Assembly: GCF_000008645.1 (NCBI RefSeq) | Contig: NC_000916.1 | Coordinates: 1,650,001-1,682,000 of the forward strand | Source of the DNA: Methanothermobacter thermautotrophicus str. Delta H | GTDB lineage: Archaea > Methanobacteriota > Methanobacteria > Methanobacteriales > Methanothermobacteraceae | Reading direction: 5' to 3' | Length of the DNA stretch: 32,000 nt | Shown: in pieces, positions 1 through 21,191 of the stretch | Layout of the letters: every line of letters starts with the position of its first letter | How positions within the stretch are numbered: position 1 is the first letter of the stretch | The notes under the pieces: generated by a model | What the model was told of the DNA's origin: nothing | Database searches by the model: none | Seen by the model: the letters and a program-made list of their open reading frames with translations, nothing else | Program-made: the position numbers and the translations under genes

Positions 1-1358
1 AGGGGGGATTCACCTTTGACATGGGACCATCATGGTACCTCATGCCAGACGTCTTTGAAAACTTCTTCGCAGAGTTCAATGCCAGGCCAGAGGATTTCTA
101 TGACCTCAAAAAACTTGAACCAGCATACCGCGTATTCTTTGACGGGGGAAGGGTAGTTGATGTATCATCTGATATTGAAAAGAACTATGAACTCTTTGAC
201 AGCTTTGAGGAAGATGGGGGTGAAAGACTCAGGGAGTACCTGGAATCAGCCGGTAAACTCTACGACTCGGTTGTGAAGGAAATGCTCTACAGGGACTACA
301 GGTCAGTCCTGGACTTCCTTAATGGAAAGCTCCTGCTACAGGGATTGAGGCTCAACATACTCGAATCTCTTGAACACTTCGTTAACAGGCGATTTAAGAG
401 TGACGAGGCCCGCAAGATACTCCAGTACTCAATGGGATTCCTTGGAAGCGCACCACAGAACACACCCTCAATGTATCATATAATGTCCCATATCGACATG
501 ACCCTTGGAGTCTTCTACCCTGAGGGGGGTATAAGGAGGGTTGCCCAATCAATATATGAACTCGCCCTTGAACATGGAGCCAGATTCCACTTCAACGAGG
601 AGGTTAAAAGGATAGAGGTAATCGATGGAGTGGCAACATCTATCATAACCGACAGGAACATCTATGAAGCTGATGCGGTCCTGGTGAATGCGGATTACCC
701 CCACAGTGAACTGGAACTTCTTGATGAACCCCACAGGACCTATGATGAGGCATACTGGGAGTCCAGGGTAATGGCACCATCAGCCTTTGTAGCCTACCTC
801 GGAGTTGACAGGGTTATAGATGCCCTTGAACACCACAACCTCTTCCTGGAGAGGGACTGGGCCGATAAATTCCAGGAGGTATTTGACCCCCGGAGGGCGA
901 GGTGGCCAGAGAGACCATCCTACTATGTGAATGTACCATCACGGACAGATACGACTGCTGCCCCCCAGGGATCAGACACCCTCTTCATACTGGTCCCCCT
1001 CGCGCCGGGCATGGAGGATAACGAGGAACTCAGGGAGGGCCTCTACCGGAGGGTCATGGATGACCTTGAGAGGAAGGTGGGTGAAAATATACGTGACCAT
1101 GTTGTTGTGAAGAGGATATTCGCCATAAATGATTTCAGGGACCGTTACAATGCATACAGGGGCACAGCCCTGGGTCTTTCCCATACACTCAGACAGACAG
1201 CCCTCTGGAGACCATCACATAAGAGTAAGAAGGTTAAGAACCTCTATTACACGGGACATTACACCCATCCAGGTATAGGCGTGCCGATGACACTTATCTC
1301 CTCCCAGATAGTCTGCAACGAGATGATGGATGATATGGGAATTAATCCGGATGGATGA
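1..1358 (+). CDS. FAD-dependent phytoene desaturase family protein (CrtI/CrtD-like), 5' end cut by window edge
   Basis: The frame stays open back to base 3 (GGFTFDMGPSWYLMPDVF), so the gene is truncated at the window edge. It has the CrtI-type GFxFDxGPS block and the C-terminal YYTGHYTHPGIGVPMTLISS motif. The stop TGA at 1356-1358 overlaps candidate starts of the next gene. Confidence 0.85.
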   Translation, partial: GGFTFDMGPSWYLMPDVFENFFAEFNARPEDFYDLKKLEPAYRVFFDGGRVVDVSSDIEKNYELFDSFEEDGGERLREYLESAGKLYDSVVKEMLYRDYRSVLDFLNGKLLLQGLRLNILESLEHFVNRRFKSDEARKILQYSMGFLGSAPQNTPSMYHIMSHIDMTLGVFYPEGGIRRVAQSIYELALEHGARFHFNEEVKRIEVIDGVATSIITDRNIYEADAVLVNADYPHSELELLDEPHRTYDEAYWESRVMAPSAFVAYLGVDRVIDALEHHNLFLERDWADKFQEVFDPRRARWPERPSYYVNVPSRTDTTAAPQGSDTLFILVPLAPGMEDNEELREGLYRRVMDDLERKVGENIRDHVVVKRIFAINDFRDRYNAYRGTALGLSHTLRQTALWRPSHKSKKVKNLYYTGHYTHPGIGVPMTLISSQIVCNEMMDDMGINPDG

Positions 1359-2250
1359 TTTTTACTGTATAAACCTATTAATGGGTGATATAACTTTGAT
1401 TGACGGGAAAATTTACTCAATATTTAAGCGTGGAAGCAAAACATACTTCTACAGCACGCTATTCTTCCCAAAGGATGTCAGGAGAGACGTTTTTATACTC
1501 TACAGCTTCCTTCGAAAGGCCGATGACTACGTTGACCGGGTACCGCAGGATACTGATGGGTTCTATGAATTTGTGGAAAGGTACCGGAGAGCATACTCCG
1601 GTGAAATCACAGGTGACGTGGTGGTTGATTCCTTCGTGGAGCTTTCAGAGAGAAAAAATTTTGAAGATGAGTGGACAGAGGCCTTCCTGAGGTCCATGGA
1701 GATGGATATAACAGTATCATCCTACAGTACAATGTCTGCCCTCGAAGAGTACCTCCTTGGTTCATCAGAGGTCGTGGGGCTCTTCATGGCATCCATAATG
1801 GGCCTCCACACGGATTCATACCACCATGCAAGGTACCTTGGAAGGGCCATGCAGTACGTTAACTTCATAAGGGACATTGCAGAGGACATTGAGCTTGGAA
1901 GGCTATACTTTCCGATGGACGAACTTGAAAGGTTCGGACTCCAATCCCTTGATCCTGATGAGATAAGGGGGAGGGAGGATAATTTCCGGTCATTTCTGAG
2001 GGCCCAGATAGACATCTACAGGGACTGGCAGAGGACAGCTGAGAGGGGCTACCGGTACATCCCCTACCGTTACCTGGTACCCATAAAGACAGCGGCTGAC
2101 ATGTACATGTGGACATCAAGGATCATTGAAAGGGACCCCATGATAGTCTACAGCCGAAAGGTGAAGCCGTCAGGGGGCCGTGTGGTATCCGGGGCGGTAT
2201 TTAACATGTTCCGCCTCATGGGTCCTCTCAGGGTCAGCAGAGGTCCATGA
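1330..2250 (+). CDS. crtB: Squalene/phytoene synthase family enzyme (CrtB/CrtM-like head-to-head prenyl condensing enzyme)
   Basis: Two Asp-rich motifs are present, YSFLRKADDYVD and NFIRDIAEDIELGRLYFP. There are three possible ATG starts: 1330, 1351 (ATGGATGA overlapping the upstream stop) and 1381. C30 versus C40 specificity cannot be read from the sequence. Confidence 0.85.
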   Translation: MIWELIRMDDFYCINLLMGDITLIDGKIYSIFKRGSKTYFYSTLFFPKDVRRDVFILYSFLRKADDYVDRVPQDTDGFYEFVERYRRAYSGEITGDVVVDSFVELSERKNFEDEWTEAFLRSMEMDITVSSYSTMSALEEYLLGSSEVVGLFMASIMGLHTDSYHHARYLGRAMQYVNFIRDIAEDIELGRLYFPMDELERFGLQSLDPDEIRGREDNFRSFLRAQIDIYRDWQRTAERGYRYIPYRYLVPIKTAADMYMWTSRIIERDPMIVYSRKVKPSGGRVVSGAVFNMFRLMGPLRVSRGP

Positions 2251-2269
2251 CCTTCGGGGCAGTGTTCAG

Positions 2270-3136
2270 ATGAATGTTCTTGGAGACTATGCGAGATTTC
2301 TCTTCAGGATATCCAGGTTCAGGTTCTGGATCTACACAGGCGGAACCTATGTGATAGGATACACCCTGGCCGCGTCAGGATTTGCAGATTTCCTCTCACC
2401 TGCCTACTACCTCTACCTGATATACTTTTTCTTTCCGGCCAGTATCTTCATATACGGGGTTAATGACTGGTGGGATGAGGAAACCGACATTCTGAACCCC
2501 AAGAAGGGCTCCAGAGAACATATGCTGGCCCAGGATGAGAGAAAAAGATTGAAGAGATCGATAATACTAGTAACCGTCATCAGCTTCCTTATGATGCTAT
2601 CACAGACACTTACGGAGGCCCTAATTTTCATGGGATTCCTTTTTTTATCATACTTCTACAGCGCACCCCCACTTCGCTTCAAGGAGAGACCCTTCCTGGA
2701 TTTCTCATCCAACTACCTCTATATAATGCCGGGAATATTCGCATACAACCTTGCATCGGGCGCCCTTCCGGACCCGCTGATCCTCTTTGCCGGTTACTGC
2801 CATGTTGCAGCCATGCACATCTTCTCGGCCGTACCTGATACTGAATATGACAGAATTGCAGGTATAAACACCACCCCCGTTTTCATCGGCAGAAGACCGG
2901 CCCTTGCACTTTCAGCCTTCTTCTGGTTACTGCTATCCATTATAACAGTATTCGTTACAGGATTCCATCCACTGAGCTTCCTGGTATTCATATACCCGGC
3001 ATTTCCCCTTTCAGTGCTTCTAATAAGGAGAATAAGAATAGAGAAGATATACTGGTATTTACCCCATGTTAACACTGCCCTCGGCGGCCTTCTATTCCTT
3101 GCACTCATAAACTACAGGGTGTTTCACTGGATATAA
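2270..3136 (+). CDS. UbiA-family membrane prenyltransferase (lycopene-elongase/LyeJ-like by context)
   Basis: Polytopic hydrophobic protein with Asp-rich motifs GVNDWWDEETD and DTEYDRIAGINTTP. ATG 2270 (MNVLGDYARF) is preferred over the track start at 2180, which would overlap crtB by 71 nt. The LyeJ-like assignment rests on neighbours only. Confidence 0.75.
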   Translation: MNVLGDYARFLFRISRFRFWIYTGGTYVIGYTLAASGFADFLSPAYYLYLIYFFFPASIFIYGVNDWWDEETDILNPKKGSREHMLAQDERKRLKRSIILVTVISFLMMLSQTLTEALIFMGFLFLSYFYSAPPLRFKERPFLDFSSNYLYIMPGIFAYNLASGALPDPLILFAGYCHVAAMHIFSAVPDTEYDRIAGINTTPVFIGRRPALALSAFFWLLLSIITVFVTGFHPLSFLVFIYPAFPLSVLLIRRIRIEKIYWYLPHVNTALGGLLFLALINYRVFHWI

Positions 3137-3150
3137 CCCAACGGGATACT

Positions 3151-3897
3151 TCACCATAATTTAAACCTGGGTGTTCTTAATATGAGTGCAATGAGCATGA
3201 GGCCTGCAATGAAGGGTATCTCAAGGCCAAGGAAGAGGCAGGCACCTGTCCAGAAACACATTATCAGGTAAAGACTTGATACAGCACCATTACCCATCTC
3301 CTGCAGGGAGTCACCGGGCACTGCCAGTGAGATCAGTGCAGCCCCCAGACCTGAGAGAATCCAGCCCGCGAAGTTCTGTAGTGGAACCCCATAGAAGATC
3401 CCCGGATTCACCCACACCCAGAATTTGAGGGCAACTGCAGCCGGGTCAATAACCACGTCGGTTAATGCAGCAATAAGGGCCGCCAGGATCAGAAATTTAA
3501 CCCTGCCCTCAACACACTCCTTTGCAAGGTAGGCGGATCCAAGGAACAGGGGTAGCCACGCGAATGGAACCGTGAAGGGGGTGTAGCCTAGTATCTTCAG
3601 GCCGATCATATCACCGTAGTAGAACTCAGAGTAGGGAAAACCGGTTATTATGGCAAGGGTTTCAATCGAAATTGCATAGATGCCAAGAACGAGTATCAGT
3701 AAAAAGCCACGGGACCCGAGGCTCCTTATGGTTGATATGAATGATGGAACAGCCATTGAAATTATGAATATAACTGATACGATCCAGTAACCCTCTATTC
3801 TCATGCCGGTAACAGGGTATGAGCTCAGAGCAAGTATGATACCCGTCAGCAGTATCATCAGGGAGGTCCTTCCGGCTTTATCAGACATACTGAACAC
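3151..3897 (-). CDS. Carotenoid biosynthesis membrane protein, CruF-like (Caroten_synth/DUF422-type family, from memory)
   Basis: Multi-TM protein with GFPYSEFYYG, a DVVIDPAAV..FWVW block and FYGVPLQNFAGW. These match my recollection of the CruF bisanhydrobacterioruberin hydratase family. It is convergent with the UbiA gene, with a 14-nt gap. Confidence 0.65.
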   Translation of the reverse strand: MFSMSDKAGRTSLMILLTGIILALSSYPVTGMRIEGYWIVSVIFIISMAVPSFISTIRSLGSRGFLLILVLGIYAISIETLAIITGFPYSEFYYGDMIGLKILGYTPFTVPFAWLPLFLGSAYLAKECVEGRVKFLILAALIAALTDVVIDPAAVALKFWVWVNPGIFYGVPLQNFAGWILSGLGAALISLAVPGDSLQEMGNGAVSSLYLIMCFWTGACLFLGLEIPFIAGLMLIALILRTPRFKLW

Positions 3898-3910: not shown

Positions 3911-4729
3911 TCATACTCCAGATCTCCAGCCGTACACATCAGGCCTTCTGTTTCTCAGGAGGGGAAGCTTCCTCCGGATCCTCTCCACGGCTTCCAGGTC
4001 AATATCTGCTGTGATCACAGAGGGGGATGCATCGGCCTCACAGACGACAGAGCCCCAGGGATCAGCGATCATAGAGTGGCCATAGGCAACATAGGACGCT
4101 GAGGGGTTCCTTGCAGGTGATGCAGCAACACAGTAGCACTGGTTATCCAGGGCCCTTGACCTTACAAGGAGCCTCCAGTGGGCCGGTCCGGTTGTCATAT
4201 TGAATGCCCCCGGGAATATAAGGACCTCTGCACCCCCTAGGGCCATCATCCTTGAAAGTTCAGGGAAACGCATATCATAGCATATCCCCACACCCATAAC
4301 GCACTGGGGAGTTTCTATAACGGTCACGGAGTCGCCTGCAATCAGGCTATCTGATTCCCTGAAGCTTATCTCTCCGGGAACATTGATGTCGAAGAGGTGG
4401 ACCTTGCGATGCTTCCCGATGATGTTCCCACCATCGTCCATCACAAAGGAGGTGTTGTAGATGCCTTCAGGTGTTTCCTCGGGGATGGAACCTGCGACCA
4501 GGTGGATCCCCAGTTCCCTGGCAATTGACCTCATGGTTCTTATGGAGTATCCATTCTCATCCTCTGCATACTCTGAAAAAAGGTTTACATCGTAGGGGCA
4601 TGTGAACATCTCAGGAAGCACAATGAGCCGGGCGCCTCTCTCAGCGGCCTCCACAATCATCTCAACGGCAGTACCAACATTCTTCTCTTTATCTTCGGTT
4701 ACCTGCATCTGGCATATTCCAAGCCTCAT
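3911..4729 (-). CDS. Carbon-nitrogen hydrolase (nitrilase superfamily, Nit/omega-amidase-like)
   Basis: The Glu-Lys-Cys triad contexts are present: LIVLPEMF, GKHRKVHLF and GVGICYDMRFPE. Confidence 0.85.
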   Translation of the reverse strand: MRLGICQMQVTEDKEKNVGTAVEMIVEAAERGARLIVLPEMFTCPYDVNLFSEYAEDENGYSIRTMRSIARELGIHLVAGSIPEETPEGIYNTSFVMDDGGNIIGKHRKVHLFDINVPGEISFRESDSLIAGDSVTVIETPQCVMGVGICYDMRFPELSRMMALGGAEVLIFPGAFNMTTGPAHWRLLVRSRALDNQCYCVAASPARNPSASYVAYGHSMIADPWGSVVCEADASPSVITADIDLEAVERIRRKLPLLRNRRPDVYGWRSGV

Positions 4730-6538: not shown

Positions 6539-7435
6539 ATGAATACAACTGAAAAGCTGGATAAAATCGACACATCACTCAGAAATGTGGGATACATACC
6601 GAGCAGGGACATCATCATAACCCTTTTTCTCTCATCGGAACTGAAAAAACCTGTTCTCGTGGAGGGCCCGCCCGGGACCGGTAAAACACTTCTAGCTAAA
6701 AAAACTGCAGAGGCACTGGGAAGAGAGTTCTTCAGGATACAGTGCTATGAGGGCATAACCTTCGAGCAGATAGTCGGAGAATGGAACTACCAGAAACAGC
6801 TTCTGAGCCTTGAAAAGTCACGAATCCATGGATCCGATGAAGACGTCTTCAGGGAGGATTACTTCATAAAAAGACCACTCCTATCGGCATTCATCAACGA
6901 GAAACCCTCACTGCTCCTGATAGATGAGATAGACAAGGCAGATGAGGAGGTCGAGAGTTTCCTCCTCCAGGCCCTCGGTGAGAAGCAGATAACGGTCAAT
7001 GACCTTGGAACCTTTGACCTGCGAAATGATATAATGGTTTTCCTCACCTCCAACTCCCAGAGGAACCTCCTCGACGAGACAAGGGACAGGTGCCTTTACA
7101 TCCACATTGATTACCCTGACCCTGAACGTGAGATGGAGATCGTGAGGGCTCACGTTCCATCAGCACCTGAGGGCCTCATCAGGGAAACTGTAATGCTCAT
7201 AAACAGGATAAGGGGGCTGGGAATCATCAAGAAACCCTCCATAAGGGCCACCGTGGACTGGATCAGGACCATCATGGCCCTTGGAAAGGATAGCCTGGAC
7301 TCCGATACTCTTAAGGAAACCCTTGGAGTTGTTATAAAGAACAGGGCGGATGAAGCAAAGGTCCTTGATCTTGTGGAATCGGTTGAGGGGAAAGATGAAG
7401 AGGATCATTCATCTATCAAACATATTAAGGGATAG
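6539..7435 (+). CDS. MoxR-class AAA+ ATPase (CoxD-like)
   Basis: Walker A GPPGTGKT and Walker [11 protein letters not shown] are present. Size is about 300 aa, typical of MoxR. It is followed by an overlapping VWA gene. Confidence 0.85.
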
Positions 7436-8504
7436 GGGGGTCCCGGTAAGCATAAGGGGCACCATGGACGCATCTGAGGCCTATCGAATATTTAAGGGGA
7501 GGCCTGAACTCAGGGATGCCCTCTTCTCGGTTTACGTTAAGGACCCAAGACACGCAGGCGCATTCATGGAGGCCTACGAGGAGATCTTCGGAGTTCCAGC
7601 GAAAAATGAATCAGAGGAATCAGGAGAAGGCGAGGGACTACATCACCTAAGGTCATCAGAAAATTTTTCAGGCAATTCAGAGGCGGAAATGGGAATTGAT
7701 GAGCTTTCACAGCTCAAACCCGAAATTGAGGAGTTAACTGACCCTTCAATGGATGTGGCCGCAGTCATGGACAGGGACATGTCCACCCTCAATTCATTCG
7801 ACCCGGAGATATTTGAGCTATGCCGCAGACTTGGAATAAAAATTGCCAACAGAAGATCAAGGAGGCTACGCCAGTCCAGGAGGATGAAGCCGGATATAAG
7901 GCGGAGCATAAGGAAGAACATTAAACATGGGGGCACAGTGCTTGAACTTATACGCTCAGAACCGAGGGAGAGGAAGAGCCAGCACATATTCCTCAGTGAT
8001 GTGAGCGGGTCTTGTGACTGGATAAGCAACTGGTTCTTCTGCATAATCTACGCAGCCCAGCGCACATTCTACCGTTCACGATTCTTTGACTTCGACAGCC
8101 GAATAGTTGAGACAACCCACCTGCTGGATGAGGACGACCTCTACGATGCCTTCAGGAATCTCAGGGAGTCAAGAATCAGGAATTTAATGATCCACGGAAC
8201 ATCCAATATGTACACAGCATTCAGGGATTTTATTGAAGGCGTAACCTTCACAGGAAAATCATACATAGTTATCCTCTCAGACTGCAGGGACTGGGCCGGT
8301 CCAAGGAGGGATGGTATCCCTGAGAGCGTTGAACTGGTAGCTGAGATGTCAGAGAGGGCCCGGAAGGTTCTGATACTTAACCCTGAACCTGAAAAGAAGT
8401 GGGACGTCGTGGATAGCTGTGTTTCACTTTACCGGGATGCCGGGGCAAGCGTGATGGAGGTCAGGACACTCAGACAGCTTGCAGAGGTTATAGAAGGGCT
8501 TTAA
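7395..8504 (+). CDS. VWA domain protein, CoxE-like
   Basis: MIDAS-type motif [10 protein letters not shown] and a basic [11 protein letters not shown] segment. ATG 7395 is preceded by GAGGGG and is preferred over the track start at 7350. Either start overlaps the MoxR gene. Confidence 0.75.
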
Positions 8505-14363: not shown

Positions 14364-16388
14364 TTAAAGTCTTCTGGCGGATGTTAAGCCTCCAAGAACC
14401 AGAAGAATGGATACTATGATCCCTGCTACCGGTGAACCGGTTCTCTCCATCCCCACAACGGTGGTAGTGTTTGTTCTGTTAGCAGGACCTGGAGATCCCC
14501 GAATAGTTACAGTGGTTTGAACGAGCTGGTAGTCTCTGGCGGTTACTGTGGCAGTACCGGGACCTTCATCAGCCCTTAAAACCGTAATGGCCATACCATT
14601 GGTCCAGGGGACTGTTATAGATTTACTGCCCAGGTTCCCCAGGCTGGTTGTGAAGGTCACCCGTGGGCCGCTGAAGAAGAGGGCGGCATCTGCACTGTGA
14701 TCACCGCCAGCCACATCATGGTAGACACTGGCGGTAATGGTTGAGGTTCCACCAGTGTTTATGGTGGAGGGACTTGCATCGATCTTCAGAACCAGCCATG
14801 GATAGTATTTTAGGGTTCCATTGCCAGGGAAGAATTTAGCGGTATCAGGACTGTTGGTACCATACCAGTTGTAGGAGGCGGTGGTGTTACTGTTTTCCAG
14901 CTGATGAAAGAGTCTGTCCAGATCGTCCCGTATGGGCTTCAGGATGGGTTCCAGTTCCGGATGCTCTTTAATGGCATCATCAAGTGGTTTAAGCATTTCA
15001 TCGATGCTGGGCCCGAAGTTGGAAAATAGAAAGTTCTGGATATAATATTCATAATTGGCGATACGGTTGTAGTTTATGGTCCCGTTAGGTGAGCAGATCA
15101 CTATACCTATCCCTGCGCCATCCCCTTCTATGTTGTTACCGGTGACCCTTGTTGTGTTAAAGCCTGCAGCCACCATGGAAACGTCACGGGTTCCATTTAC
15201 TCCATTTACCATGTTATGGATCATTTCAAGATGTGCCAGGGCAACACCCACAATACCTGCAGCCACACCAGGGGAGGTGATATCTGAAGCAATGTTATTT
15301 TTCAGGGTTGCATTGTTTAGGAGGCCCAGGCCTAACATGGCTACGGATGCACTGGCTTTGCTGATACCGGATACAAGGTTACCTTCCATTTTAAGGTCCC
15401 CGATGGCAACGATAACCATTCCAACTGCCTGTTGCCCCGCCACTATGGATGATATTATATTTTTGGATATTTCAACGGTTCCATTTCCCACTATGGCGGC
15501 TTCAAGCGCATAGACAGAACTGTTGGCAGAACCCTGTAAATTTAAGATCCTGTTACCTGATATGATGGCATTAACGCTGTCACTGACTATTTCCATTCCC
15601 ATAATGGCACTGAAGGCAGTTACACCGTCAATGATGTTCCCGGTAACCACTAAACTGGCCACACTGGCCAGCTCGGGGTTTCCACCGGCACCCTTGCTTT
15701 TTCCAAGCTGGAATCCGAATACGGCGCCATTAGAAGTGCTTATATTTGACAGGGTGTTCCCGCTTAGATTAAAACTGTCTAAAGTCCCGTTGGTGGAAAC
15801 AGTAACCCCACAGATGGTTCCCTCACCATTCATGTTTAATATGCGGTTTCCGGAAACCGTGAAGAAACCCTGGGAAATGTTAGCAAATATACCATTCTCA
15901 TAGGGACCAGAAATAACGTTATTTAAGATTGTGGTGTTGCATCCTGAAACAGCAATCCCTGTTTTACCACCATTAATCCTGTTATTTTCAATTTTACAGT
16001 TATCTGCACTTATATTAACCCCGACACCATGGGGAGGACTGTTTATTATGAACCCCCTTATTGTGCTTCCGCTGCCATCACCGGTCCCATCGTTTACCAG
16101 GGTGAATGCTGTGTTAGCAGGGTTTATTTCCACATCATCGCCGTTATTAGCCTGTATTATGAGTTTCTTGTTCACGGTAACATCCTCATGATAGGTTCCA
16201 CCGTGTACATTGATAACGTCACCCTCCAGGGTACTGGAATTATCAATTGCTGCCTGGATCGAGGTGTAGATCTGACCTGACCCCACATCCCACTGGGTTG
16301 CCGATGCATTACCTGCACAGAAAAGACAAATAGCAACCAGAAAAAGACCTCTATAAAATTTAGAACAGGTTTTCTTCAAATTCTCCAC
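14364..16388 (-). CDS. Secreted cell-surface protein (adhesin-like): parallel beta-helix (PbH1) repeats, Ig-like domain, C-terminal sorting-signal-like anchor
   Basis: Signal peptide MENLKKTCSKFYRGLFLVAICLFCAGNASA (GTG start). There are many repeats of about 22-25 aa of the N.I.G....GI type (NNRINGGKTGIAV, GNRILNMNGEG, GNIIDGV, GNRILNLQG, GNNIEGDGAGIGI). A Thr/Ser-rich beta domain and NRTNTT sequons follow. The tail is MERTGSPVAGIIVSILLVLGGLTSARRL. Confidence 0.8.
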   Translation of the reverse strand: MENLKKTCSKFYRGLFLVAICLFCAGNASATQWDVGSGQIYTSIQAAIDNSSTLEGDVINVHGGTYHEDVTVNKKLIIQANNGDDVEINPANTAFTLVNDGTGDGSGSTIRGFIINSPPHGVGVNISADNCKIENNRINGGKTGIAVSGCNTTILNNVISGPYENGIFANISQGFFTVSGNRILNMNGEGTICGVTVSTNGTLDSFNLSGNTLSNISTSNGAVFGFQLGKSKGAGGNPELASVASLVVTGNIIDGVTAFSAIMGMEIVSDSVNAIISGNRILNLQGSANSSVYALEAAIVGNGTVEISKNIISSIVAGQQAVGMVIVAIGDLKMEGNLVSGISKASASVAMLGLGLLNNATLKNNIASDITSPGVAAGIVGVALAHLEMIHNMVNGVNGTRDVSMVAAGFNTTRVTGNNIEGDGAGIGIVICSPNGTINYNRIANYEYYIQNFLFSNFGPSIDEMLKPLDDAIKEHPELEPILKPIRDDLDRLFHQLENSNTTASYNWYGTNSPDTAKFFPGNGTLKYYPWLVLKIDASPSTINTGGTSTITASVYHDVAGGDHSADAALFFSGPRVTFTTSLGNLGSKSITVPWTNGMAITVLRADEGPGTATVTARDYQLVQTTVTIRGSPGPANRTNTTTVVGMERTGSPVAGIIVSILLVLGGLTSARRL

Positions 16389-18734: not shown

Positions 18735-19814
18735 TCATTCCTCCCAGATCTTCCTCAGCTCTGGGTGAATTGTCCCGGTTATTCCAAGTTCATCCATGGC
18801 AGCTCTGTAGGCCCTGTGGATCCTGCTGAACTCTGGTCGTATCATCCCCCTGAATGCATCGTACCCCATAACGCGACCATAATTTTCTGTTATGGATGTT
18901 ATTATCCTCTCGAAGTCTTCCTTAATCTTCTCGATGCTGTGACCTGAGCCTTCAATATTCTCTCTCAGCCTTCTGAAGTCGAGGGATGCGCTTCCAAGGA
19001 CTTTCACGTCTCTGAGTGTTTCAGGGCATTCAATGTATGGGAGGGACTTTCTGAGCATCCCACCAGCCGGGGCAACCCCCATTATCTTGCTGGCCCCGAT
19101 TGACATTGCAAGGAGTACGTGCTCGTAGATGGTGAGGGCGGTTTCAATCCGCCCCTCAGGGTCGCCGGGGACCTCAAGGGGCCTCAGTTCAGGTAGTGAG
19201 AGTGGAGGTTTGACCTCAGGTATTCCTGGTGATTCCATGGGTTCACGGTCACCCTCATCAGGCACTGAATCACCTGCAGGGGCCCTGGCGGCCATTCCAG
19301 CTTCATCATCCATGACCTCAGATTCAGTGGAATCTGCAGGAACATCAGATTCTATCAAAAGCGTTTCAGATACATTTGAGTCCTTAACCTCGCTGATTTC
19401 GGACTTTCCTCTAACATCAGTGTATTCTGGTCCTGTAACTGTAGCTTCATCCCTATCAGGGGCAATGGCCGTCTTCAGGGAAGCCAGTTCACTGGCCATA
19501 TCAGGTTCTGATAGCCTCCTCATGGTCTTCCTTGCAAGGAGAATAATCCTCCCGAGATTGGATCTCCTGTCAGCCAGTACAAGTAGCTGGTGGCTGTCGT
19601 TCAGGAGCACCATCTTCCCGCCAGGGAACTCCATCACGGCGGACCTGTATTCCCCCTGCCCTGCCAGGTTTATGAGTTTACCCGAGGCATCAGCCATGAC
19701 CTGGGCCATTGATCCCAGGTCCCTGCTGAATGATCCGGCACCGTAGATGATCCGGCCTGAGCTTTCGGTTATGATAACCCCCTCGACACCATCAATTTCC
19801 AGGATTTCGCCCAC
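18735..19814 (-). CDS. Roadblock/LC7 (MglB-like) domain protein fused to a long acidic linker and an unknown C-terminal domain
   Basis: The N-terminal 100 aa follow the Roadblock pattern (IDGVEGVIITESSGRIIYG...GKMVLLNDSHQLLVLADRRSNLGRI). An acidic/Pro-rich low-complexity stretch of about 110 aa follows, then a globular C-terminus of about 140 aa. GTG start. Confidence 0.6.
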   Translation of the reverse strand: MGEILEIDGVEGVIITESSGRIIYGAGSFSRDLGSMAQVMADASGKLINLAGQGEYRSAVMEFPGGKMVLLNDSHQLLVLADRRSNLGRIILLARKTMRRLSEPDMASELASLKTAIAPDRDEATVTGPEYTDVRGKSEISEVKDSNVSETLLIESDVPADSTESEVMDDEAGMAARAPAGDSVPDEGDREPMESPGIPEVKPPLSLPELRPLEVPGDPEGRIETALTIYEHVLLAMSIGASKIMGVAPAGGMLRKSLPYIECPETLRDVKVLGSASLDFRRLRENIEGSGHSIEKIKEDFERIITSITENYGRVMGYDAFRGMIRPEFSRIHRAYRAAMDELGITGTIHPELRKIWEE

Positions 19815-19844: not shown

Positions 19845-20444
19845 TTAGATGTTCTCCTTCTTTAAAAGTTTGCAGTGTGTTATCCACGCAGCCTTCTTCT
19901 GGCCGGGGGGATAACATGTTATGAGCATCAGCCTTGCATCCCCGCTCTGGGAAAACCTCACAGGGTTTGTTCTGTAGTCCCACCTTATATCATCACCATT
20001 GGATGTCACGGTGTATATGTAGCGTATGGAGGATGATGCATCCTCTATGATTACCCTGTCACCCTTCCTCAGCGCTCCGATCTTCCTGAAGGGTCCTGAG
20101 TAGGTTGTCCTGTGTCCGAGGATTCCGCACTCCCCACCAGATCCTGGCATAACGCTTTCAGGATAGTGGTATACTGATTCATAGGCATTTACGGTGTCCT
20201 CCCTTATCCAGCACTTCACCCCTATACTGGGTATGATGAGCCTTCCAATGACAGGGCCACTGGAGCCGGCGCTGCTGCTGGGTACAGGGTCAAATAGCTC
20301 CCTGGGAGCATTCCTGTAATTCTCAAGGTGAGCCCTTGATCTTTCAAGGGCCTTGTAGTCCTCGAATCCCTTTATTATGATACCTGAACTTAGCATGATG
20401 AAAAAAAGGCATATTAGGGGTGCGTAGAGTCCTGTTTTCTTCAT
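19845..20444 (-). CDS. Sortase-family transpeptidase homologue with N-terminal membrane anchor
   Basis: TM anchor MKKTGLYAPLICLFFIMLSSGIIIKGF, His motif GILGHRT and Cys motif ARLMLITCYP (TLxTC-like). By eye, IAGHTF...KKGSMVYF...LTLITC of S. aureus SrtA aligns to ILGHRT...RKGDRVII...LMLITC. Confidence 0.7.
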   Translation of the reverse strand: MKKTGLYAPLICLFFIMLSSGIIIKGFEDYKALERSRAHLENYRNAPRELFDPVPSSSAGSSGPVIGRLIIPSIGVKCWIREDTVNAYESVYHYPESVMPGSGGECGILGHRTTYSGPFRKIGALRKGDRVIIEDASSSIRYIYTVTSNGDDIRWDYRTNPVRFSQSGDARLMLITCYPPGQKKAAWITHCKLLKKENI

Positions 20445-21191
20445 TTATGACCCTTCTCTGTATTTCCTCAGGATTTTTTTCACATGGCCGGCAATGACGG
20501 ACCTGTATTTTGTCACCCTGTCAGGGTCAGGAATCCAGGCAGTTACCTTGGCGCTGATGCCTGTATCAGTGAATTCCAGTATGATCAGTCCGGGTTCAGG
20601 GTCCTTCAGTATCCCGGGAACCCTCATGAGGACGTCCTTCACATCGGATTCAAATTTCTCCAGGTCCATGTCATAGTCAAGGTTGACCCTCAGTTCAACC
20701 CTCCTCCGGTCTTCAGCAGTGTAATTTACGTAGGCTGTTTTTGAGAAGGTGGAGTTTGGAACCGTCACCATTCCGGCCTCTGGAGTTTCTATCGTCGTTG
20801 TTCTGAATCCAACCTTCCTGACCCTGCCCCGCTGGCCGGCAACTTCGATGGTGTCACCCACCCGGAAACTTTTATCTGCAAGGATGAACATCCCGGATAT
20901 GAAGTTGGATATGATGTCCCTTGATGCAAAACCCACTGAAACACCTGCTATTCCCAGGCTAACGGTTATTGCAGTTATGTCAATGCCGAGTTCCCTGAGG
21001 ACTATGCTTGCTGCGATGAAATAAACACTGTACTTTATTATGTCATTGATGACCTGTATGAGTGTGAGGTCCAGTTCCCATTTTCTGGCGGATTTCCTCA
21101 GGAAGTAGGACGTCCACTTAACAAGGAGGACGGCTACCATCACAGTTACAATTATTATTAGAATGGTCTCAACTGTCAGGAGAGGAGTCAT
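20445..21191 (-). CDS. Small-conductance mechanosensitive channel (MscS family)
   Basis: Three N-terminal TMs, then FRVGDTIEVAGQRGRVRKVGFRTTTIETPEAGMVTVPNSTF. The stop directly abuts the sortase start. Confidence 0.85.
   Translation of the reverse strand: MTPLLTVETILIIIVTVMVAVLLVKWTSYFLRKSARKWELDLTLIQVINDIIKYSVYFIAASIVLRELGIDITAITVSLGIAGVSVGFASRDIISNFISGMFILADKSFRVGDTIEVAGQRGRVRKVGFRTTTIETPEAGMVTVPNSTFSKTAYVNYTAEDRRRVELRVNLDYDMDLEKFESDVKDVLMRVPGILKDPEPGLIILEFTDTGISAKVTAWIPDPDRVTKYRSVIAGHVKKILRKYREGS

Follow-up and report, generated by a model that had tools for sequence, protein, structure and literature searches.

A candidate sortase-type C-terminal sorting signal, T-[VI]-G-M-Q-x-T-G-x-P, on surface proteins of Methanobacteriaceae and its plausible pairing with a divergent archaeal sortase

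Canonical sorting signals of the LPXTG type carry Pro at P3 in about 90% of known cases, and the class C sortases of bacteria polymerise their substrates. In other archaea, tripartite C-terminal signals of the PGF-CTERM type are handled by archaeosortase A, with attachment of a lipid (PMC4343526). For the Methanobacteriales, genome papers have reported how many sortases are encoded, together with one or two LPxTG-like proteins per genome (Leahy et al., 2010, PMC2812497; Kaster et al., 2011, PMC3087415), and the canonical LPxTG-like proteins in earlier reports are mru2147, msm0173, and msm0411 (PMC2812497, PMC3087415, PMC11915815). Lupo et al. (2025, PMC11915815) described a 'Sortase E' orthogroup that is conserved in pseudomurein archaea and whose substrates they did not name; its gene lies beside a CpaB/RcpC-like pilus-assembly gene, and the authors judged it to be related to pili or surface proteins and not to wall synthesis. 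Sortase genes of pseudomurein methanogens have been noted for more than a decade, and credible substrates are almost none, with one or two LPxTG-like proteins per genome. Here we analyzed 32,000 nucleotides of Methanothermobacter thermautotrophicus str. Delta H (NC_000916.1, positions 1,650,001 to 1,682,000; hereafter the window), which encode a sortase and, with 3.46 kb between the sortase gene and the start of its gene, a surface protein with an unusual C-terminus. We consider it fairly probable that the last ~31 residues of this surface protein are a dedicated sortase-type C-terminal sorting domain that is handled by the sortase of the same genome.

The gene and the elements of its tail are as follows.

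14364..16388, minus strand: surface protein gene, 674 aa when read from GTG 16388, with stop codon TAA at 14366..14364 (open reading frame (ORF) list and translation)
14430..14459, minus strand: extended recognition motif VVG-MERTG-SP, residues 644-653 (codons, ortholog conservation, and a logo of 200 signals)
14436..14450, minus strand: pentapeptide M647-G651, with the proposed scissile bond T650-G651
14379..14429, minus strand: hydrophobic membrane-spanning helix, residues 654-670 (VAGIIVSILLVLGGLTS), with a conserved GG (AlphaFold2 (AF2) model and hydropathy)
14367..14378, minus strand: basic tail ARRL (read from the sequence)

A sequence-only reading of this DNA had described the last 28 residues as a sortase-substrate layout consisting of an xxxTG pentapeptide, a hydrophobic helix, and a short basic tail. 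Rechecked codon by codon, its account of the tail proved exact: the minus-strand codons ATG GAG AGA ACC GGT TCA CCG (14450..14430) encode M-E-R-T-G-S-P, and the protein ends with MERTG, SPVAGIIVSILLVLGGLTS, and ARRL. The tripartite layout likewise stood, as conservation across the whole family marks it as a genuine domain resembling a sorting signal. In the AF2 model, the C-terminal helix spans residues 654-673 (hydropathy 2.3-2.5), and the motif lies in a disordered segment with the last folded domain on one side and the membrane helix on the other. Among the ORFs of the window, the surface protein gene is the only one that combines a C-terminal hydrophobic stretch and a basic tail with an upstream xxTG.

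The motif is strongly conserved. In 49 orthologs with 41-97% overall identity to the window protein, no substitution occurs at M647 or T650, and the conservation of G651, P653, and G667 in the resulting 50-sequence alignment is at least 90%. The column conservation of the motif decapeptide was 0.73, versus 0.42 for the linker immediately upstream, the lowest value in the protein. All full-length orthologs finish with the identical tail architecture. An exhaustive search of 1.84 billion representative proteins with a 38-position profile of the tail (A1) retrieved 686 protein clusters with a library-wide E <= 1e-3, of which 124 reached E <= 1e-10. Among the 150 matches listed, every match ended 0-13 residues from the C-terminus, in proteins of 48-2102 aa. 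Both the conservation and these library-wide E-values rule out a chance occurrence of the MERTG tail. The question raised by the sequence-only reading, whether a TG motif recurs in other secreted proteins, was thus answered decisively, 686 clusters carrying the same domain.

The consensus of the family is T-[VI]-G-M-Q-x-T-G-x-P, followed by the helix (LAIL...GG) and a K/R tail, which is present in essentially all members. In a logo of 200 unique tails, the successive positions were occupied by T (89%), V or I (98%), G (68%), M (99%), Q (90%), any residue, T (100%), G (100%), any residue, and P (96%). The values for Thr and Gly are rounded, and one ortholog (P0066) has Ala for Gly. A Gly at position +17 was found in 98% of the signals, and the distance from the Met to the C-terminus was 27-29 aa in 215 of 228 proteins. 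P3 is mainly Gln, with Glu, Lys, Arg, and His also occurring, and Glu accounts for about 4% of the copies. The xxxTG pattern of the sequence-only reading therefore holds, whereas MERTG is not the motif itself but a lineage variant of the longer consensus. The Leu at P4 and Pro at P3 of canonical signals are replaced by Met (99%) and Gln (90%, Glu in the window protein); judged by these residues, the signal is a variant and not a canonical LPXTG signal. The named members of the family all belong to the Methanobacteriaceae, and look-ups of the clusters returned only names from Methanobacterium. A further protein search with a 46-aa alignment of the signal added 11 short fragments.

Curated models recognized the signal weakly. 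Pfam and NCBIfam 20.0 contain no model dedicated to it. A consensus-like ortholog tail scored 19.0 bits with the LPXTG_anchor model TIGR01167 (cutoff 15.9), and 48 tails of the family, examined at E <= 1, gave matches to TIGR01167 in 12 cases (best E 0.0023), to Rumino_NPXTG in four, and to GVDTG_CTERM in two. At the same threshold, neither the window tail nor any of the 48 family signals matched PGF-CTERM, PEF-CTERM, VPXXXP-CTERM, or another archaeosortase signal, and no PGF or PEF motif occurs in the sequence. PEP-CTERM was hit weakly and below threshold by 2 of the 48 signals, with only the helix and the tail covered. To judge from these comparisons, the curated matches are weak and mainly of the sortase type. 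In the open literature searched, we found no description of an MQxTG-type signal.

The proteins that carry the signal are diverse in domain content. A Pfam scan of ten carriers identified DUF11, Chlam_PMP repeats, Beta_helix, Big_1/Big_3_5/Invasin_D3, CarboxypepD_reg, BNR_4, and VWA as passenger types. In M. formicicum BRM9, the gene adjoining the ortholog of the surface protein encodes a different repeat protein of 796 aa, which bears the same tag in a tail ending ...ISMQTTGTPLAGLILAILMISGGFVSNRKNR. Single-linkage BLAST clustering placed 110 of 119 passengers in one cluster through their shared repeat and Ig domains, and is uninformative on the number of families. In 1.4 Mb of related DNA, MxxTG is missing from the other ORFs whose C-terminus consists of a membrane helix and a basic tail. 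The closest relative of the window, a metagenome-assembled genome (MAG) labelled Methanothermobacter sp. (L003; sortase identity 79%), holds a 406-aa N-terminal part of the surface protein (P0073) and a 276-aa ORF (L003:7044-7874) that still ends ...VGMETTGAPLAGIIVSILLLLGGLTSARK; here the surface gene is apparently split in two.

The remainder of the surface protein was divided as follows.

16299..16388, minus strand: Sec-type signal peptide, residues 1-30, ending ...LFCAGNASA before TQW (basic n-region, hydrophobic h-region, AxA site)
15033..16295, minus strand: right-handed parallel beta-helix passenger, residues 32-452 (AF2; predicted local distance difference test (pLDDT) mostly >90)
14895..15026, minus strand: helical hairpin, residues 455-498 (AF2 secondary structure)
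14499..14816, minus strand: Ig-like beta-sandwich domain, residues 525-630 (AF2)
14460..14498, minus strand: variable, disordered, sequon-bearing linker, residues 631-643, with N637-R-T and N640-T-T (AF2 and column conservation)

Homologs of the protein (n = 82) are all Methanobacteriaceae proteins annotated 'cell surface protein'. Like all named homologs of the sortase, they originate from Methanobacterium or from MAGs bearing the label Methanobacteriaceae or Methanothermobacter. Comparison with the orthologs puts the probable true start three codons downstream of GTG 16388, which gives a protein of 671 aa. The AF2 model, computed with the 50-sequence alignment as input, reached a mean pLDDT of 87.4. 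The signal peptide, a helix of residues 2-23 in this model, is kept in the orthologs, and its cleavage is predicted at ...AGNASA/TQW. Using Foldseek, we found matches of the beta-helix to phage tailspikes and to alginate epimerases and lyases (E ~3e-4, TM ~0.3), a likeness that, at the level of the model, is generic fold similarity; the score of the protein with TIGR03804 was sub-threshold. The Ig-like domain matched intimin D0-D1 (107 aligned columns, 27% identity). Residues 633-657 have a pLDDT below 50, and this disordered stretch holds both N-x-T sequons as well as the motif. The whole protein contains 18 N-x-S/T sequons, versus 10.9 ± 2.9 in shuffled sequences. The earlier description of a beta-helix and Ig-like protein with a signal peptide and sequons agrees with the signal peptide read from the sequence, the AF2 folds, and the sequon count.

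The candidate enzyme is encoded upstream of the surface gene.

19845..20444, minus strand: sortase of 199 aa, with an N-terminal membrane helix and a sortase beta-barrel (PF04203)

What the sequence-only reading had called a sortase-like gene encodes a real sortase by its Pfam match, its fold, and its His and Cys residues. The match to the Sortase family PF04203 had an E-value of 6.5e-17 and 61.9 bits (cutoff 26.6). The AF2 model (pLDDT 80) showed an N-terminal helix of residues 4-45 and a beta-barrel, and a Foldseek comparison with the PDB returned sortases A, E, and D (E 3.5e-10 to 1e-8, TMt 0.6-0.77). In the alignment of the sortase family (A2, 24 sequences), His111 (GHRTTYS; GHRTxYS in the family) and Cys177 (LITCYPPG; TCYPPG in the family) are invariant, and they align with H120 and C184 of S. 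aureus SrtA (SaSrtA). VYHY, which contains Tyr94 and is likewise invariant, falls opposite GHY in the class E structures 5go6 and 5utt. For SrtE1, the Tyr of H228-Y229 in the beta3/beta4 loop has been proposed to form a hydrogen bond with the P3 amide when P3 is not proline (PMC5148588). A class-E-type Tyr94 with such a preference agrees with the Q or E found at P3 of the signal. The loop motif SNGxDIRWDY, which is invariant, and the K/R at 182/183 are specific to this sortase family. On the contig that carries the standard sortase of locus L024, Methanobacterium sp. UBA44 also encodes a second paralog, which is longer at 320 aa (L082:9488-10450). It has an extra N-terminal domain, GHHTTH in place of GHRTTY, and TCYPPGYSRAAW.

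To place the sortase in its genomic context, we used a pattern scan of species-representative genomes, which yielded 89 relatives of the sortase, all from Methanobacteriaceae; 80 loci (1.38 Mb) were retrieved and scanned with a hidden Markov model of the signal. Of all 80 loci, only that of the closest relative (L003) has an ORF with the signal no more than 10 kb away from the sortase, and in M. formicicum BRM9 no sortase lies within 10 kb of the surface-protein ortholog. In the window, the genes between the sortase and the surface gene encode a DUF362/Fe-S protein, NadA, and an uncharacterised protein of 359 aa. Because proximity of sortase and substrate is not conserved, it is no evidence for their pairing. 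The 3.5 kb that the sequence-only reading had counted in favor of an enzyme-substrate pair carries no weight, with one near case in 80 loci and housekeeping genes in between; the proximity is incidental. An enzyme-substrate operon was rejected on the same grounds, the signal lying near the sortase in the nearest relative alone among the 80 loci (1.38 Mb). Within one genome, sortase and signal were found together in the window, in L003, and in M. ferruginis (sortase in L018, signal protein P0261).

The conserved neighbors of the sortase gene are those of an RNase Z-MscS-sortase array, an order observed in 73-76 of the 80 loci.

20445..21191, minus strand: MscS-type mechanosensitive channel gene (Pfam MS_channel domains), given for context and no part of the proposed mechanism

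The stop codon of the MscS gene directly abuts the start codon of the sortase gene (19845..21191 of the window), which suggests that the channel and the sortase are co-transcribed. In the window, the next gene downstream of the sortase is that of the 359-aa protein (p359; 18735..19814, minus strand; L018:14497-15771), which has no Pfam match and an acidic, Pro/Glu-rich center. The sortase and the gene of this protein are parted in most Methanobacterium genomes by a ~3.5-kb cluster of Mvh-like hydrogenase genes, and p359 was rejected as a partner on account of that cluster. Around the surface gene, the window's pair of an AAA ATPase and a VWA_CoxE gene (6539..8504) and its CN_hydrolase gene (3911..4729) also occur near the surface-protein ortholog of BRM9 (L001), which indicates a partial, rearranged synteny. 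Positions 21..3897 of the window hold a carotenoid-type gene set, here in a methanogen.

21..1358, plus strand: phytoene-desaturase-like amine oxidase
1330..2250, plus strand: phytoene/squalene synthase
2180..3136, plus strand: UbiA prenyltransferase
3151..3897, minus strand: PF04240 'carotenoid biosynthesis protein'

This set resembles the haloarchaeal bacterioruberin genes crtI, crtB, lyeJ, and cruF; such genes would be unexpected in a strict anaerobe.

Taken together, the tail is most likely the recognition signal of an archaeal sortase, and the signal and the enzyme are real and plausibly paired. What we describe is probably a real, hitherto undescribed archaeal variant of the sortase/LPXTG system. 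The protein would be exported via Sec by means of its N-terminal signal peptide, as predicted from the sequence. The C-terminal helix and the R/K tail would then retain it in the membrane and leave T-V-G-M-[Q/E]-x-T-G-x-P exposed in the disordered stalk outside, an architecture seen in both the AF2 model and the conservation. The membrane-anchored sortase (19845..20444) would recognize M at P4, Q or E at P3, T at P1, and G at P1', and, by homology to bacterial sortases, would cleave T650-G651 with formation of a thioacyl intermediate at Cys177. The acyl group might finally be transferred to an amine nucleophile, most plausibly the epsilon-amino group of a Lys in the pseudomurein stem peptide or of a lipid-linked precursor. 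On this scheme, the sortase would act as a housekeeping enzyme for many unlinked substrates. Cleavage between T and G and attachment to pseudomurein are putative steps. We propose only tentatively that the divergent Methanobacteriaceae sortase, with Ala for Arg, and the extended, proline-free signal T-V-G-M-Q-x-T-G-x-P, cut between T and G, covalently attach hundreds of proteins to pseudomurein.

Several observations weigh against the pairing of this signal with this sortase. An invariant Ala186 (codon 19887..19889) stands opposite the canonical catalytic Arg, which opens the last strand and corresponds to SrtE1 R329 (Cys320+9) and the Arg of C. diphtheriae SrtF. The placement of Ala186 is based on ungapped alignments to 5cuw and 5uus, the profile alignment to S. 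aureus SrtA not having reached the C-terminal strand. No counterpart of SaSrtA R197 or SrtE1 R329 was found in these alignments, only the K/R at 182/183 lying nearby, and a structural equivalent may lie elsewhere in the protein. Given Ala186, the enzyme may use a different catalytic mechanism or serve a different purpose. Its best NCBIfam match, class E (NF033747), reached 59.2 bits and remained far under the cutoff of 160. The presence of the second paralog in some Methanobacteriaceae means that the assignment of enzyme to substrate is not unique. Sortase and substrates show no conserved gene linkage, and their co-occurrence, in three genomes, is anecdotal. The tail of the window protein itself matched none of the curated sorting-signal models, and the top-150 logo is partly biased towards the query profile, its proteins having been fetched with the profile itself.

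These points have to be set against other explanations of the tail. It is unlikely, in our view, that the tail is a plain, uncleaved C-terminal membrane anchor, with TVGMQxTGxP serving as a glycosylation or protein-contact site or in helix-capping or positioning, and that it spread by shuffling of the whole C-terminal module (Ig/DUF11, stalk, and helix) among paralogous adhesins. The clustering of 110 of 119 passengers does point to shared C-terminal domains and to common descent for many carriers; the helix is conserved as well (LAIL...GG), as for a functional membrane helix, and the sortase is devoid of the canonical Arg. However, M, T, G, and P are invariant to nearly 100% in a stalk that is otherwise disordered and variable, which is typical of an enzyme recognition site and not of a passive anchor. 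Moreover, unrelated passengers (VWA, BNR, and beta-helix) are tagged, the spacing of 27-29 aa to the C-terminus is rigid, other proteins with a C-terminal helix do not contain the motif, and the T-G pair with helix and basic tail matches curated models of the sortase type only.

The same models bear on the idea that a different enzyme, either archaeosortase/exosortase-like, rhombosortase-like, or another membrane protease, processes the signal and leaves a lipid-anchored or released product. Archaea offer a precedent in the processing of PGF-CTERM by archaeosortase A (PMC4343526), only 2-3 residues separate the motif from the helix, as with PGF, and the active site of the sortase is atypical. 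We nevertheless regard this as quite improbable: no copy of the signal matched PGF-CTERM, PEF-CTERM, or VPXXXP-CTERM, and PEP-CTERM matched weakly and sub-threshold. Cleavage within a T-G pair is a hallmark of sortases, the anchors LPXTG, NPXTG, and GVDTG gave the best curated matches, and the same lineage has a conserved sortase. We give very little credence to a third scheme, in which the sortase does act on the signal but joins its substrates into polymers or to some other protein or polymer of the surface, in the manner of a pilus or fibre. Bacterial class C sortases provide the precedent here, the 'Sortase E' gene lies beside a pilus-assembly gene (PMC11915815), and a second, longer sortase paralog exists. 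The window sortase, however, is not located beside pilin-like or CpaB-like genes but in the housekeeping RNase Z-MscS array, and its candidate substrates resemble those of housekeeping sortases in their number, large size, and heterogeneity. No conserved pilin-type Lys motif was seen, no search aimed at it having been made.

If the tail is a sorting signal read by the sortase, as we favor, the consequences are concrete. The signal (MQxTG, helix, and K/R tail; 686 clusters) provides a defined set of substrates, supplies peptides of the TVGMQNTGIP type and TVVGMERTGSPV that can be tried on recombinant sortase, and predicts the mature C-terminus, which is Thr650 in the window protein. The anchoring of proteins to an archaeal wall would thereby become testable. 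Annotation of the surface proteome of Methanobacterium-type methanogens, which live in soils, digesters, and animal guts, would improve, and the tagged proteins could offer vaccine targets for methane mitigation. Should the attachment be covalent, this would be the first archaeal pathway that anchors proteins covalently to the wall, and it would present a naturally orthogonal sortase/tag pair; a sortase with a specificity orthogonal to LPXTG could be useful for protein ligation. An active site without Arg, if real, would challenge the accepted His-Cys-Arg triad of sortases.

Compared with known systems, our findings concern the same archaeal order as the previous reports (PMC2812497, PMC3087415, PMC11915815), in which one or two sortase genes per genome were already known; these reports differ in that they contain neither an MQxTG-type signal nor a large substrate family. 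Archaeosortase A with PGF-CTERM, together with the ArtB-E signals of Euryarchaeota, resembles the present system in having an archaeal tripartite C-terminal domain that follows a glycosylated Thr/Asn-rich stalk and that is carried by many surface proteins of one lineage. The motif, however, is PGF there and MQxTG here, where no match of the TIGR04126 type was obtained. The archaeosortase is polytopic, in contrast to the single-pass enzyme with a sortase fold encoded in the window, and its known product is anchored to lipid and not linked to the wall.

Among sortases, class E (Streptomyces SrtE1 and SrtE2, Actinomyces SrtA, and Corynebacterium SrtF, with an LAXTG signal) is the nearest class by sequence. 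The PDB matches 5utt, 5go5/6, 5cuw, and 5uus are all class E enzymes; the His motif GHRT(Y), the Tyr after beta3 (VYHY here, GHY there), the non-proline P3 of the signal, and an apparent housekeeping role without linkage to substrates are shared. The window sortase departs from this class by an invariant Ala in place of the canonical Arg (SrtE1 R329), by M-Q instead of L-A at P4/P3, and by its short length of 199 aa without a cytoplasmic extension. With the LPXTG signal (TIGR01167/PF00746), the archaeal signal shares the T-G pentapeptide, the helix of ~17-20 aa, and the K/R tail at the extreme C-terminus, and in both cases the signal follows an N-terminal Sec signal and a disordered stalk and is borne by many unlinked, multidomain, adhesin-like carriers. 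It differs by Met instead of Leu at P4, by Gln (or Glu, Lys, Arg, or His) instead of Pro at P3, by a conservation that reaches T-[VI]-G upstream and Pro at P3' downstream, and by its host, which is an archaeon with a wall of pseudomurein and not of murein.

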